The notes under the pieces are model-generated. The model ran no database searches. It was given only the letters and a program-made list of their open reading frames with translations, and was not told where the DNA came from. This document shows positions 34,626-62,608 of a stretch of 64,000 nucleotides of DNA, one piece after another. A program made the position numbers and the translations under genes. Each line of letters begins with the position of its first letter. The first letter of the stretch is position 1. Origin of the DNA: an uncultured cyanobacterium. GTDB taxonomy: Bacteria; Cyanobacteriota; Cyanobacteriia; Cyanobacteriales; Cyanobacteriaceae. The stretch spans positions 160,001-224,000 of the forward strand of contig CAVQBA010000005.1 of NCBI GenBank assembly GCA_963710605.1. The letters are read 5' to 3'.

Positions 34626-34639
34626 TGCGAACAACTAAA
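34626..34639 (-). promoter_or_regulatory. Shared upstream motif copy A (TTTAGTTGTTCGCA)
   Basis: About 83 bp upstream of ATG 34543, same strand. Confidence 0.6.
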
Positions 34640-34806
34640 TATATGTAGAAGATTGATGTTAAAACTTTTACAGTTAATAGGTTTGAGATTTTGGTGATAT
34701 TTTCAAACAAGATAAGATAGACGATCGAATAGTCAAAATCGATCTTATTTTCTTTCTGTGTTGAGAAGATACAATTATTGAAAGAAAGTTCTTTTTCTCA
34801 ACGAAA

Positions 34807-35670
34807 TTAGTGAGTTAAACTAGAAAAATACTCAAACCATTGTTTTACATTAATTTTCGCTCCTGCGGCATTTTTATGACCACCACCACCATAGTGTTTA
34901 GCTACTTGCGATACATCAGCACCACCATTTTTACGACTACGAAGGTTAATCACGATCGTATCATCAATACAACTCCACATCACTACATATGGTGCTTGAG
35001 GAAATTTATCATACATAGCTTGACAAGTTTCTGAGACCATATGAGGGCTATTAATCATCGGTACTCGATCTGGTTGTTCTGGCAGATTAGCCCAATAAAC
35101 ATTTTTTAATTGATTTTTAACTTGATTTTTTCCTGCTCGAACAATAGTCTTACCTTGTTCGACTAAGTTTGAGACATATCGATCGTCATTTAATAAGTTT
35201 TGCCAAGTATCTAAATCAAAATCAACTAAATTTAATACTGCTTCGGTGAAAGGTTTTGTTTGTTCTATTTCCCATTTCCATAAATCTCGATCGTCAAACA
35301 TCTTTACTGACCAAGGTAAGGGAGATTCGGGGAAGAAGTAATTCCAAGTTAATACTGCTCCCGATTTGTTTAAGTTAAAGAAAGCTCCTGATAATCCCAT
35401 TAACGCCTCTTGGGCTGTTTTATGGTGATCGAGTATAATTACCTTTTGATGATCGTTTTGTAATTCTAAAATGATGTTTCGAGGATAACTGAAGTCTAGT
35501 AGATAGATAACACTGTTTTTCCCCATTTTTGGTACGGGAGATTGGTGATAACCTGCAATGTATTCTACTTTTGTATTGGGATGATGTTCTTGAAAAAATT
35601 TGTATGCGATGGTAGCTGAACAGAATCCATCTAGACAATTGCCATGATAGATAACATAAGTTTTAGTCAT
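34807..35670 (-). CDS. DHH/DHHA1-family phosphoesterase
   Basis: YHGNCLDG, LLDFS, ILDHHKT, DDRDLW, GGGGHKNAAG. Confidence 0.9.
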   Translation of the reverse strand: MTKTYVIYHGNCLDGFCSATIAYKFFQEHHPNTKVEYIAGYHQSPVPKMGKNSVIYLLDFSYPRNIILELQNDHQKVIILDHHKTAQEALMGLSGAFFNLNKSGAVLTWNYFFPESPLPWSVKMFDDRDLWKWEIEQTKPFTEAVLNLVDFDLDTWQNLLNDDRYVSNLVEQGKTIVRAGKNQVKNQLKNVYWANLPEQPDRVPMINSPHMVSETCQAMYDKFPQAPYVVMWSCIDDTIVINLRSRKNGGADVSQVAKHYGGGGHKNAAGAKINVKQWFEYFSSLTH

Positions 35671-35825
35671 TAGTTAGCTAGTTTATTTTGTTAATAGACA
35701 ATAATGTTACGAATACTCGATAACTCTCGAAATATAGTAAGGATTTGAAGAGTTTTCAGAGTAATGTTTAGTTGGTTGCCGATCGATTTTGCTTAATTAG
35801 TTAAAGTAACTTTTTTCTGCTCAAA

Positions 35826-37421
35826 TTACCAAACTTGAATCGATCGAGCTGACATTGCGTTAGCGAAATTATTTCTCTGGGGGTGATTAACTCCAAAAAT
35901 AGTTACTACCTGATAAGCATCATCATCATCAGGATAATTAGATTTAATCCAAACGTAAGAAGGAATACCTAATTTACCTCCTACATCAGCGTTTCCTCTA
36001 TTAGTTTGATTATTAAATCCTTTAAAACAATCGCTACTATAAAGTAAGTTTAATCCTTCTCCTAAGACATCTTTTTTGTAACCTTCTCTATACCAATCGT
36101 CAACTTCACTAGGATATTTTAATTGAGTAGAAGGAATCAAAAATATTCTACTATTATCGTCGAAAACATCTTGATAACGATTTTGTTGATTTCCTAAACT
36201 ATGATTAGCTGGATTACCTTGAGGTTGAATAGCTCGAAAACAATCTAAAACATCTTGAATAAAAATTTGCCAGTCTGACTCTACACAAGGAAGAATAAAA
36301 TCGCTTAATTCCCAAAAGCATCCTCTTAGTCTTCTATTATTTAGATGTAAGGGGCGACGAGAACTTTTTGCAAATCCTCCTATATGAGATGCAAATTTCA
36401 ATAAAGATTCTATTAGCTCGAAATCTTTTTGGTTTTTTGCTTCTAATAAAATTTCACCTTGACAATAGTAAGGCTCTTTTCTTTTACTATCTCCTAAATC
36501 TTCTTCACTTAAAGTAATATCCAAACGAGTAGTACTTTCTTGGTTTAATTGACCAAATAATCGATTTTCTAAACGTTTACTTGTTTGTATATCATATAAG
36601 CCTAAAGCGATCGCTCTGAACCAGTAACGTAAAATACCTCTTAAAGCGATCGGGCGAAATTCCACATCGCCATTCCATTGGTTATCTTTATTCGGAGGAA
36701 ACGCACCATAAACACCTTGAGAATAAAATTGAAAATGATATTCACCAGAATAGGGTAAATTAGCTTTAGCGTTAGCTCGTCCGTAACCAGCATTTACTCT
36801 CGAGCCTATTCCAGCTTGTAACGCTTTTTTTAACCAATTTTTGACAGTTATTAAATCGGCAGATTGATTTTTACCTTTACTTGTCAACATTAAACCAATT
36901 AGAATTTCAGGTTTTTCCATTGACAGAAAAAAGTGAGGCACGGGGTCATATTTTACTCGATTGTTATTTTGCCATGTCCATTGAGGATTAACTATATCAG
37001 TACTCAAACAAGGTTCGGTGGGAAAAGCATCTAAAATTTGTACCGTACCAATACCCTCATCAATATCACCTAAAATTCTTTTTACTTCGGTTAAGCTAAT
37101 TTCTCCTTTTTTAGTATCTTTTTTAGCTTGTGCGAGGATAGCTCCTTTTAAACTGCTAGCTGGAAGATAAGGTACACCATAAACAGGATGAAATACAGGT
37201 AAAAGTAATTCTCGAAAGCCACGCATTCCCCCAACTCGAACACGCCAAGAAAATTCGATTTTGAGGCTTTCGGTAGCTAGTTTTTTTGTTCTTGCTGTTA
37301 ATTTACGATATATTTCATTACAAGTTTGTTCTGCATCTTCTACCGATTCTAAAATTGGGGATATTTGCCTTTCGGTCGTAAGTACTTTTGTATTGAGAGC
37401 TTGTAAAGGATTAATTATCAT
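35826..37421 (-). CDS. cmr6: Cmr6-Cmr1 fusion RAMP protein
   Basis: N-half [21 protein letters not shown] (Cmr6-like); C-half FRPIALRGILRYWFRA..LFG..GGFAKSSRR (Cmr1-like). Confidence 0.8.
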   Translation of the reverse strand: MIINPLQALNTKVLTTERQISPILESVEDAEQTCNEIYRKLTARTKKLATESLKIEFSWRVRVGGMRGFRELLLPVFHPVYGVPYLPASSLKGAILAQAKKDTKKGEISLTEVKRILGDIDEGIGTVQILDAFPTEPCLSTDIVNPQWTWQNNNRVKYDPVPHFFLSMEKPEILIGLMLTSKGKNQSADLITVKNWLKKALQAGIGSRVNAGYGRANAKANLPYSGEYHFQFYSQGVYGAFPPNKDNQWNGDVEFRPIALRGILRYWFRAIALGLYDIQTSKRLENRLFGQLNQESTTRLDITLSEEDLGDSKRKEPYYCQGEILLEAKNQKDFELIESLLKFASHIGGFAKSSRRPLHLNNRRLRGCFWELSDFILPCVESDWQIFIQDVLDCFRAIQPQGNPANHSLGNQQNRYQDVFDDNSRIFLIPSTQLKYPSEVDDWYREGYKKDVLGEGLNLLYSSDCFKGFNNQTNRGNADVGGKLGIPSYVWIKSNYPDDDDAYQVVTIFGVNHPQRNNFANAMSARSIQVW

Positions 37422-37435
37422 TATCTAGTTACCTC

Positions 37436-60770: not shown

Positions 60771-61856
60771 CCCTTATTCCGCATGTTAAAAATAAACTAC
60801 AAAAACATTACCTGATATATTCTCTTTATCAAGATATTTTCCGAGAATATTTAACTTTTTTTCCATTCACTAATTTCAATTTACTCATTTTTCTTTCTTT
60901 TTTCCACCGCAAAGCCTCCCTCTTTTTTTGAGGTCTATTTATTTATTTTTCTCTCCATTTTCTACTCTAAATATAATAATATTTTTGGCAATTTTCACCA
61001 AAATAATTCACTGTTTTTTTCCTTTCTTTATTTATGTTTATTTGCTCTTACTTTTCTACTTTTATTAAATGTATTCCTTGAAATAATTGAAATATCCATT
61101 TTAATGTTGGTTTCTGGGATTGTTTTGATAGTTTAAGATTAGTTGAGAAAAGCTACTCTTTTCTGACTCACTTCCCGAACCTACTCTCATAAACAATGGG
61201 ATATCTCCATCATTTGTTGTCATTATATTGAGCAAAAATTGATTGAGATTCTGGTCTTTTGTCCCGTGAGTATCCCTTGTTTATTTTAATTATATTCTCT
61301 TGACAATATTTTGATTCTTCTCCATAATTATATTCTCCTTGAACCGATATAGATGTCCCATCCAAATGACTAAATTCTGTATCTAATTTAAATACGTTGA
61401 TGGTGTTTATGCCGATTTTTGTCCATAATGATTCCACAGATATATCATAGAGTTTATCCATTACTCTCCCTATTTTATCGTCATTAATTAATTCTGCTTT
61501 AATCCCAGAACCTAATAACTTATCTACTGGTTTGTCTTGAAAATATTGTGGAAATAAATATAATGGTTTGGATAAAAATCCTAAGCCATTAAGAATGATT
61601 GCCTTGACAATTAAACCTTGCAGAAATTTTTTCTCGCAAATCTTGAGGTATCATAGAATCGACGAGAGCGTTCAATTTGTAAATCATCGATAATACCTGC
61701 AACTAATCCTAAATGGTCTAAGTTTTGAACTTGTATTTGTTGAGTCATGACAACCCTCGTATCTATATTTATTCAATTATCCTCTTTTTTTCTGTCGATT
61801 TATCTAAGTATATTTATTTAGATGTTTCTCTTTCAAATTAAACTGCGGAATGTGGG
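60771..61856 (-). mobile_element. IS1634-family element, internally deleted and frameshifted
   Basis: MTQQIQVQNLDHLGLVAGIIDD, HLDGTSISVQGEY, GYSRDKRP; imperfect TIRs CCCTTATTCCGCA (60771) / TGCGGAATGTGGG (61844-61856). Confidence 0.8.
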
Positions 61857-62040
61857 CTATAACACTGCTCCAAACATCGTTAAAAAGATAAATGATAGAA
61901 TCGATGCCGAACGTATTTGGTTAAAGGCTTATTGAACTGGTATCTTACCTACTACGATCGCAATCAAACTAGGTTTCTCACATTTAGCAGTCTGGTTATA
62001 TCAAGAAATGTTTGAAAAACTCAAACAGTTGGTCGAATAG
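61857..62040 (+). pseudogene. 3' fragment of a second CFI-box-CTERM gene
   Basis: Near-identical inverted copy of ~58578-58762, with a TGG>TGA stop. Confidence 0.85.
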
Positions 62041-62097
62041 ACTAAACAAGAAGGGTTTAATAGAGCGTTCGGGGTGCATTTCGAGTGCACCCTTTTT

Positions 62098-62400
62098 TAT
62101 TTATCTTCATCTAATAACTCCAAATCAACTTCCCAAGCAGTATCAACTAAGCACCAATCGCTAAAGCGTGAATCTAGATCGAGTAATATTAAATAACACC
62201 ACATCCAACATTGATTGGCTAGGCTATAACCATAAAATCTCCCTATGACAATATTCCAATCAGTTAACTGCTCTCGATCGAATAATCGTCATCGTATAAC
62301 TTGCCCCATTGCATACATTAGTTTTTTGGTATCGAGAAAAAAGGAAGTATTATCGCTAGGAAGAGGTAAATTTTGATTAGCAGATAAAAGATTAGATATA
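62098..62400 (-). pseudogene. Second copy of the Trp-rich small gene, with an in-frame stop
   Basis: GQVIR*RLFDREQLTDWNIVIGRFYGY..CWMWCYLILLDLDS..DTAWEVDLELL. Confidence 0.55.
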
Positions 62401-62594
62401 GTTTTTACTTCCTCTTTCTTTTTCGATCGTCAGAAAATAAGTGATAGCTGTATAGTCTGCTAAATGTTGTAACCGAACTTCATCCAGATTAATTTTTAGT
62501 TTTTGGAATAATTGTCTGGCTTTCTGGCAAAGTAATCAATAATCATTTTGTTTCTATTTTAACCCAGTAATTATAAGGAGTTAAAATAGCTTGA

Positions 62595-62608
62595 TTTTGT
62601 TGTTCGCA
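62595..62608 (+). promoter_or_regulatory. Shared upstream motif copy I (TTTTGTTGTTCGCA)
   Basis: 80 bp upstream of ATG 62688. Confidence 0.6.

Follow-up and report, generated by a model that had tools for sequence, protein, structure and literature searches.

A conserved 19-bp promoter box in a cyanobacterial type III-B CRISPR-Cas island and a kinase-WYL protein as its candidate regulator

Little is known about the transcriptional control of type III CRISPR-Cas systems. Proteins of the WYL family have long been predicted to act as CRISPR regulators, and few of them have a defined DNA site or regulon. In this work we analyzed a stretch of 64,000 nucleotides from the genome of an uncultured cyanobacterium (hereafter the window; G000:C5:160001-224000, in an assembly of 3.93 Mb with 33% G+C), which carries a type III-B (Cmr) locus, a CARF-HEPN effector gene and a gene for a 737-aa WYL protein, P0001. 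Nine copies of a 19-bp box, TTTnGTnnTTCGCAYnAAA, are distributed over this island, and the box is very probably a genuine, conserved and oriented promoter element. Given that it is placed at a fixed distance upstream of the island promoters and that it recurs beside the same regulator gene in other cyanobacteria, the sequence comparisons point to P0001, a WYL protein fused to a kinase-like domain, as the protein that probably binds it. This would be a case of a defence locus controlled by a WYL protein, here with a regulon that can be tested. The box provides a concrete conserved 19-bp site and the geometry of its promoters, and P0001, unusual in its fusion to a kinase-like domain, is the candidate regulator.

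Copies of the box in the window and in the genome

The motif TTTWGTTGTTCGCA, searched with up to two mismatches, has eight matches in the window, each of them with no or a single mismatch, at 34626(-), 43358(-), 50754(+), 50988(+), 54397(+), 55852(+), 60293(-) and 62595(+); none of 100 dinucleotide-preserving shuffles reached this count (shuffle mean 2.11). The 8-mer TGTTCGCA is present in 10 copies where 1.01 are expected, and in the first 33 kb it occurs only twice, at 4602 and 14342, inside the open reading frames (ORFs) 3821-4732 and 14117-15103. The ninth copy is a variant, GTTTCTTATTCGCATCAAA, at 45613-45631(+); with a matrix built from the other eight it scores 19.1 bits and is the top intergenic site of the genome after them. 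An earlier reading of the same letters (the original prediction) had listed these eight copies, the variant at 45614 and the two genic copies of the core, and all were found where it placed them; when measured on the ORF coordinates between the A of CGCA and the following ATG, the distances (Table 1) are each one nucleotide shorter than those it gave. All nine boxes are intergenic, in a genome of which ORFs of at least 90 aa cover about 77%, and each points towards a gene downstream of it; the seven that lie between co-directional genes all share the direction of those genes (7/7).

The conserved unit does not extend beyond the 19 bp: pairwise identity among the nine sites is 0.77 within the box and 0.30-0.34 in the flanks, against a random expectation of 0.28. 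Since only the box is conserved and its flanks are at random level, it is not a repeat element; it has neither the likeness beyond a short core nor the many genome copies that characterize a miniature inverted-repeat transposable element (MITE) or another dispersed repeat. For the same reason we consider it highly improbable that the copies are remnants or ends of mobile elements, or cassette recombination sites that delimit the cargo genes. The setting would suit such an origin, because the island is variable, follows a tRNA-Leu gene, contains MITEs, a transposase fragment and a VapE-like gene, and has one copy ahead of each cargo unit. However, the distance from the box to a −10-like hexamer is fixed, core cas10 operons and the regulator gene of distant genomes are preceded by this same box, and no recombinase accompanies it.

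Within the box, a partial dyad, TTTnnT-N7-AnnAAA, surrounds the invariant and asymmetric core TTCGCA. A frequency table of 41 sites, some columns of which are fixed by the regular expression used to collect them, shows that outside this expression T at −7 to −5, Y/R at −1/0 and A at +10/+11 are conserved, and that the 6-nt arms are partly complementary across the 7-nt spacer. The motif had been described as non-palindromic; this holds for the core, which is asymmetric and oriented, and has to be amended for the arms, which are partly symmetric. TGTTCG resembles the half-site of cyanobacterial LexA, and by eye a LexA-type box was considered; it was discarded given that the other half is absent and that the cross-species ATTCGCA does not fit. 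A search of Rfam at the gathering threshold returned tRNA only, and no known RNA family at the boxes.

When the whole 3.93-Mb genome was scanned with the matrix, the eight sites on which it was itself trained scored 25.3-28.5 bits and the best match elsewhere, which is genic, 20.8 bits; no site comparable to the boxes was found outside the 28-kb stretch that holds them. Six of the 12 exact occurrences of GTTGTTCGCA in the genome fall within the island. An even and unoriented distribution over the genome, which would have spoken against a regulatory element, is therefore not what is observed: the motif is confined to the island and oriented. An intergenic near-box, TTTTCTTGTTAGCATAAAC, with TTAGCA in place of TTCGCA and a score of 17.5 bits, is located 46 kb past the window (G000 C5:270321-270339).

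Spacing between the box and a −10-like hexamer

The original prediction expected a fixed distance between the motif and the transcription start. As an in silico stand-in, the sites were aligned on TTCGCN and then scanned for the hexamer TAnnnT, and a −10-like hexamer was found downstream with a fixed spacing. Its start is at +33 in 15 of 38 sites and at +32 to +34 in 24 of them (3.3 expected); among non-redundant sites the latter figure is 21/31 (2.5 expected), the window alone contributing 6/9 and the other non-redundant sites 15/22, and with nine further sites added it is 27 of 39 non-redundant cyanobacterial boxes. If TAnnnT is the −10 element, TTCGCA would lie at about −50 to −45 and the 19-bp box at about −58 to −40, with its centre near −49. 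A hexamer matching TTGACA in at least four of six positions is present at +10, that is 17 nt upstream of the −10-like hexamer, in 9 of the 39 sites, most of which are the regulator's own promoters. To judge from the sequence, the two features of DriD-type promoters are thus both present: a constant distance from the site to the −10-like hexamer and a weak or absent −35 hexamer.

An oriented motif located upstream of genes, and sharing four of six letters with TTGACA, might itself be the −35 element of an alternative sigma factor that reads the island promoters without any separate regulator. This is very unlikely, given that TAnnnT follows TTCGCA by 32-34 nt in 27 of the 39 boxes, far over the spacer of about 17 nt of the sigma-70 family, that several promoters have a separate −35-like hexamer at +10, and that no sigma factor gene was found among the island ORFs scanned. 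The 32-nt gap to the −10-like hexamer rules out TTCGCA as a −35 element.

The same hexamer bears on whether the box acts in RNA, as an element of the 5′ untranslated region bound by a Cas protein or by an RNA-binding protein such as a WYL domain. The box is located 75-180 nt before start codons, and some WYL proteins, e.g. WYL1 of type VI systems, bind RNA. On the other hand, with a conserved −10-like hexamer downstream the box would not be transcribed from these promoters, which makes a role in RNA unlikely, and it has no conserved hairpin potential beyond its weak arms; we give this explanation hardly any weight.

Taking the box as a site in DNA, the poor −35 region of most promoters together with the constant distance to the −10-like hexamer favours activation over repression, in agreement with the original view that the motif fits an activator or promoter element better than a repressor operator. 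If the regulator binds the box, our analysis leans modestly towards the box activating transcription rather than repressing it. A counterargument comes from several autoregulatory promoters that have a good −35 (TCGACA, CTGACA or TTGACT at +10), an arrangement that suits repression as well as activation.

Box 4, placed directly after the regulator gene, is separated by 332 nt from the next ORF, with a terminator-like hairpin in between. It has a −10-like GATACT at +33, and this strong hairpin follows about 50 nt further on; the box could drive a short transcript of about 70-80 nt, or the hairpin could simply be the terminator of the regulator gene.

The kinase-WYL protein and its homolog loci

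P0001 includes a polynucleotide-kinase-like P-loop domain (residues 1-175) and a helical region (about 190-400) that is the putative winged helix-turn-helix (wHTH); the WYL domain occupies residues of about 520-590, and the WCX domain those of about 600-735. The WYL and WCX parts bear out its earlier designation as a 737-aa WYL protein, to which the N-terminal kinase-like domain has to be added. PADLOC assigns residues 521-729 to a CRISPR-associated WYL family (E 2e-16) and Pfam detects WCX (E 1.2e-6); in the C-terminal parts of the homologs, Pfam finds WCX in 15/15 and WYL in 7/15. A profile search of PDB sequences gave a single match, the WCX domain of PafC (E 8.6e-4), and phmmer of P0001 against PDB sequences gave no useful matches. 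The structure of P0001 was predicted with AlphaFold from 19 homologs (mean predicted local distance difference test, pLDDT, 75), and among the Foldseek matches of the model PafBC and DriD ranked first (E 1e-7 to 1e-6), with BrxR and CapW after them. In a separate model of residues 185-737 (pLDDT 74), the last 250 residues align to WYL regulators; VIA-align gave Z 10.0 for the WYL-WCX part of DriD (185 residues aligned, root mean square deviation, rmsd, 7.2), 9.4 for PafBC, 9.5 for CapW (91 aligned, rmsd 3.3) and 8.7 for BrxR (96 aligned, rmsd 3.1). Residues 1-175 align to the Pnkp kinase of C. thermocellum (Z 14.4, 159 aligned, rmsd 3.6) and to T4 PNK (Z 14.0, 137 aligned, rmsd 3.0), and the homolog P0002 matches AAA_33 and bacter_Pnkp. 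A DNA-binding wHTH may lie in the helical region, where an invariant RLMHL segment is found; two VIA rows align model residues 121-550 to residues 2-325 of DriD, with an rmsd above 10, and for residues 188-400 the ESM Atlas gave a lead to HTH_11/DeoR clusters scoring at most 0.80. No CARF domain was found in P0001.

The original prediction proposed to look for the motif in relatives that carry this WYL family, and it does recur there, beside the homologs and before cas10 and csx1. G004, a genome of another genus of the same family, has five intergenic, gene-oriented boxes around a different Cmr locus, one of them 64 nt before cmr2. BLAST of all ORFs of at least 50 aa between the window and this locus identified four common proteins. 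Similarity is weak for three of them, which are Cmr subunits (23-26% identity, or a 34-aa patch); the sole well-conserved one is the regulator, with 38.6% identity over 772 columns (E 7e-147). A scan of the genomes of 185,579 species identified 25 homolog loci, all of them cyanobacterial. In 25 independent homolog loci, whose intergenic DNA amounts to 91 kb, the matrix trained on the window has 15 intergenic matches that reach 12 bits or more, distributed over 8 loci, where 1.45 are expected from the 14 matches in 878 kb of intergenic DNA of the rest of this genome; a degenerate 13-mer has 27 intergenic matches per 98.5 kb at homolog loci versus 13 per 878 kb. In an unbiased 8-mer count over 21 non-redundant loci, 12 have TCATTCGC in their intergenic DNA, where 1.95 are expected; in enrichment it ranks below words derived from HIP1, a set of G/C-rich words and TCGCACCA. 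The 13-mer TCATTCGCAYNAA has 2-5 matches in each of five genomes of 6-13 Mb, which is the level of the reversed control, and in each of the five one match is beside the homolog. Two exact matches in another genome (G023) are within paralogous genes with identical 19-mers and were taken as coincidence.

In Tolypothrix, Scytonematopsis, two Trichodesmium, Xenococcus and G022 (L008, L011, L015, L023, L026, L041), the start codon of the homolog itself is preceded by a box at 70-120 nt, and in Halomicronema and G025 (L012, L038) boxes are located in divergent spacers between cas10 and the homolog; a box directly upstream of the regulator's own gene is a signature of autoregulation. Boxes also precede cas10 in L012, L013, L015, L024, L030, L038 and L040, and csx1 in Geminocystis (L007). 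The homolog is accompanied by boxes on the annotated plasmids pAQ6 and pAQ5 of Picosynechococcus PCC 7002, and also in Cyanobacterium aponinum PCC 10605; the boxes of these two strains precede a methyltransferase/AlkB operon, a reverse-transcriptase operon that ends in the homolog, and a hypothetical gene. The methyltransferase boxes of pAQ6 and pAQ5 have CTGACA at +10 and TACACT at +33. The presence of box and homolog in retron-type reverse-transcriptase operons of two genomes indicates that the family is not tied to Cmr loci alone. 

As to the positions of these sites, on pAQ6 (L032:14069) and pAQ5 (L034:11917) the box is located between the regulator stop codon and an operon for a SAM (S-adenosylmethionine)-methyltransferase and an AlkB dioxygenase, and in L009:7266-8677 and L034:7550-11911 it is found before the retron-type operon whose last gene is the regulator homolog. 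In a metagenome-assembled genome of Trichodesmium (L015:6321-6687), four tandem boxes with a 118-bp period are located upstream of a gene that matches the type III accessory family C3a124.

Two control loci have no box, as would be expected of a box that belongs to this regulator. None was found in 22 kb around the second III-B locus of this genome, on contig C1, whose Cas10 (C1:299270-301879) is 37% identical to that of the window and which has a short, different WYL protein (414-aa ORF, C1:306887-307816) that matches only residues 414-723 of P0001. Likewise, the 1.65 kb available upstream of a close cas10 in G029 showed no box; this genome yielded no homolog.

Several observations tell against P0001 as the protein that binds the box. 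Neither Pfam, with the C-terminal parts of 15 homologs, nor the PDB sequence profile detected an HTH family; the Walker A motif (GxxxxGK[ST]) is not intact in the window copy (SLPETDKS, residues 6-15, at 48399-48440); and no box was found upstream of the regulator gene in this window, where the homologs' own promoters carry one. A box was not recognised in the Laspinema/Oscillatoria group (L016-L018, L020-L022, L025, L027), in L028, L029 and L031, near the homologs of G014, G019 and G011, nor, with the strict regular expression, in Stanieria (L035) and Microcystis (L036). The enrichment counts come from a matrix and a regular expression derived from the sites then counted, with kin loci that are not independent, and the transcription starts are predicted solely from −10-like hexamers in AT-rich DNA. 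Finally, the box might be bound by a factor that is encoded elsewhere in these genomes and always travels with this type of locus. As to the Walker A motif, most homologs keep it intact, G(x)P(x)SGKS, so that to judge from these residues the kinase-like domain looks inactive in the window copy only and may have a sensor-only role in this organism. The boxless loci may have a diverged site, or one beyond the DNA covered. The strict expression also found no box on the Euhalothece plasmid pEu1 (L037), where the cas10|regulator spacer has an inverted pair, TTTCCACGCGAA ... TTCGCGTGGAAA (L037:9880-9930); this pair, which was not counted as a box, may be a diverged double box serving both divergent genes.

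The lack of a detected HTH family, the boxless regulator gene of the window and the roughly one half of the examined homolog loci that have no box would suit a box that is real and bound by another factor, either a host transcription factor encoded elsewhere and dedicated to mobile III-B islands or a small protein that binds DNA and has escaped recognition; the WYL protein might then be a sensor of RNA or nucleotides or an RNA-end kinase. We consider this improbable, since the regulator is the only well-conserved protein common to the box-rich loci of G000 and G004, boxes are directly upstream of the homolog gene in many distant cyanobacteria, and the second III-B locus, with another WYL type, has none; moreover, a global host factor should have sites genome-wide, and none comparable exists.

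With P0001 as the regulator, we infer the following mechanism, in which both the binding of P0001 to the box and the nucleic-acid signal are deduced. In at least eight promoters of the type III-B island the centre of the box is about 49 bp upstream of the predicted transcription start, and through it the regulator would jointly govern csx1, the cmr2-cmr6/DHH operon and six orphan units with secreted, membrane and P-loop products, by recruiting RNA polymerase as the WYL activators DriD and PafBC do; the signal may be nucleic-acid fragments sensed by the WYL domain, the kinase-like domain or both. The confinement to the island, the fixed spacing and the recurrence of the box agree with the original proposal that the WYL protein or another factor would co-regulate the cas10 operon, the CARF effector and the orphan genes. 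More tentatively, the kinase-fused WYL family, seen here only in cyanobacteria, could be a dedicated infection-responsive activator circuit for type III-B immunity, which senses nucleic-acid ends or fragments, or the breakdown products of cyclic oligoadenylate from Cmr/Csx1, and switches on all the promoters with a box at −49. If the link to the regulator holds, the box could help to find uncharacterised genes that are induced along with type III-B immunity, and if the circuit is real it would be a cis-marker for new type III-linked effectors; the candidates would be the secreted, membrane and VapE-like orphans of this island, and further the retron-type reverse transcriptases and the SAM-methyltransferase/AlkB operons of the PCC 7002 plasmids. 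Picosynechococcus sp. PCC 7002 is genetically tractable, and with the same arrangement on its plasmids pAQ5 and pAQ6 the hypothesis is directly testable.

The best structural matches to the WYL and WCX domains of P0001 are DriD and the mycobacterial PafBC, which are wHTH-WYL-WCX activators. DriD of Caulobacter crescentus is reported to bind a 7-N7-7 pseudo-palindrome at a constant distance from the −10 in promoters without a −35 (PMC13004042). The box is similar in its arms (6-nt) across a 7-nt spacer, its constant spacing to the −10-like hexamer and its mostly poor −35, and differs in its invariant asymmetric core and its position farther upstream, near −49, where it does not overlap the −35 position. 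DriD and PafBC control DNA-damage regulons and are about 320 aa long, or a PafB-PafC pair; in contrast, the regulon proposed here comprises type III-B CRISPR, accessory and orphan genes, and the members of the P0001 family, 680-750 aa in length, begin with a polynucleotide-kinase-like domain and contain a long helical insert.

Other WYL regulators are likewise encoded inside defence loci and control neighbouring immune genes: BrxR, CapW and Sll7009 are repressors of BREX, CBASS and the Synechocystis type I-D CRISPR system. The structures of BrxR and CapW match the WYL domain of P0001 with Z 8-9.5. Sll7009 is described as a cyanobacterial CRISPR-linked WYL protein that affects the type I-D system (bioRxiv 10.1101/2023.12.07.570523). 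These are short repressors of one adjacent promoter with no kinase fusion, whereas here one box is found over nine promoters, including those of unrelated cargo, and the geometry suggests activation. WYL proteins were predicted to be CRISPR-linked regulators in 2014, in a text (PMC4012209) from which the Csa3/CARF-HTH regulators may also be compared: the idea is the same, a ligand-sensing regulator in the CRISPR locus that tunes the transcription of cas and accessory genes, and the sensor is CARF in them and WYL plus a kinase-like domain in P0001. Shah et al. (2018) list a partly cyanobacterial HTH-WYL family of type III accessory genes (cluster 36, example Nos7107_4284; PMC6546367). Compared by description only, cluster 36 is similar to P0001 as a type III-associated WYL accessory gene (PMC6546367); it is annotated there as HTH-WYL without a kinase, and neither a DNA motif nor a regulon is given. 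The short WYL protein of contig C1 may be the closer match to that family. In the main texts of the full-text literature searched, supplements aside, no description was found of the box or of a kinase-WYL regulator of Cmr loci.

Genes of the island

The coordinates of the boxes and of the main genes are given in Table 1. The presence of cas10/cmr2, cmr3-cmr6 and a CRISPR array defines the locus as type III-B (Cmr). The 69-aa ORF between cmr2 and cmr3 suggests that cas10 may be split or frameshifted near its end. The 576-aa gene that had been called a CARF effector is a CARF-HEPN Csx1 by PADLOC; phmmer of this protein against PDB sequences gave no useful matches. The MITE that had been noticed before it was confirmed as a dispersed repeat of about 111 bp by BLAST against the genome.

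Table 1. Boxes and annotated features of the island (window coordinates; distances run from the A of CGCA to the next ATG)
Feature	Position	Strand	Basis or context
Box 1, TTTAGTTGTTCGCACGAGC	34621..34639	-	82 nt upstream of 219-aa signal-peptide ORF 33884-34543
Box 2, TTTTGATGTTCGCAGGAAA	43353..43371	-	77 nt upstream of cmr2/cas10; TATGAT from +33
Box 3, variant GTTTCTTATTCGCATCAAA	45613..45631	+	176 nt upstream of csx1 (about 65 nt if the MITE is disregarded)
Box 4, ATTTGTTGTTCGCATCAAA	50754..50772	+	Directly after regulator gene; then terminator-like hairpin; no ORF within 300 nt
Box 5, TTTAGTTGTTCGCATGAGA	50988..51006	+	98 nt upstream of 157-aa membrane ORF 51100-51573; 200-aa ORF 51627-52229
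Box 6, TTTACTTGTTCGCACAAAA	54397..54415	+	112 nt upstream of 87-aa ORF 54523-54786; VapE-like P-loop protein 54854-55735
Box 7, TTTAGTTGTTCGCATAGAA	55852..55870	+	75 nt upstream of DUF4407 membrane protein 55941-57272; 188-aa ORF 57362-57928
Box 8, GTTTGTTGTTCGCATCAAA	60288..60306	-	164 nt upstream of 127-aa signal-peptide ORF 59745-60128; 356-aa CFI-box-CTERM protein 58570-59640
Box 9, TTTTGTTGTTCGCACCATA	62595..62613	+	79 nt upstream of 131-aa signal-peptide ORF 62688-63083
Candidate regulator P0001, 737 aa	48399..50612	+	Pfam, PADLOC, predicted structure
Type III-B operon	34807..43280	-	Pfam (Cmr2_N, Cas10 palm2, Cmr3, RAMPs), PADLOC (Cmr5)
cmr2/cas10	40296-43280	-	Pfam Cmr2_N, Cas10 palm2
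69-aa ORF matching Cas10b C-terminus	40063-40272	-	PADLOC positions 835-874 of 875, E 2e-4
cmr3	38867-40060	-	Pfam Cmr3
cmr4	38004-38885	-	Gene of type III-B operon
cmr5	37436-37972	-	PADLOC Cmr5
cmr6	35826-37421	-	Gene of type III-B operon
DHH/DHHA1 phosphoesterase	34807-35670	-	Last listed gene of type III-B operon
CRISPR array, 36-37-nt repeat ending ATTAATGGAAAC	43791..44847	+	
csx1, CARF-HEPN effector, 576 aa	45803..47533	+	PADLOC CARF1--CARF_HEPN, E 3e-144
MITE-like dispersed repeat	45677..45787	.	Between box 3 and csx1, downstream of predicted −10; 77 other genome matches
Terminator-like hairpin and T-run between boxes 4 and 5	50860..50893	+	Hairpin itself 50860-50883

The other genes preceded by a box have no family assignment or a weak one. 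Three of them encode signal-peptide proteins (219, 127 and 131 aa), and the 356-aa protein combines a Tat-like leader with a CFI-box-CTERM domain; the others are a membrane protein of 157 aa, the DUF4407 membrane protein of 443 aa and the VapE-like P-loop protein. On the same strand, the 219-aa ORF is followed by a 135-aa membrane ORF and an ABC transporter (31133-32617).

The island follows a tRNA-Leu gene and an HsdR fragment, and contains MITEs, a transposase fragment and the VapE-like gene. At 26305-27103 a tRNA-Leu(GAG) is directly followed by part of a type I restriction R subunit, and a PhoD-like gene and a DUF433/DUF5615 pair come with it; a variable defence island probably has its edge here. 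Ahead of the regulator gene, the spacer of 866 bp (47534-48398) is filled with short repeats, AAAATAGCTA... units and G-rich hairpin repeats.

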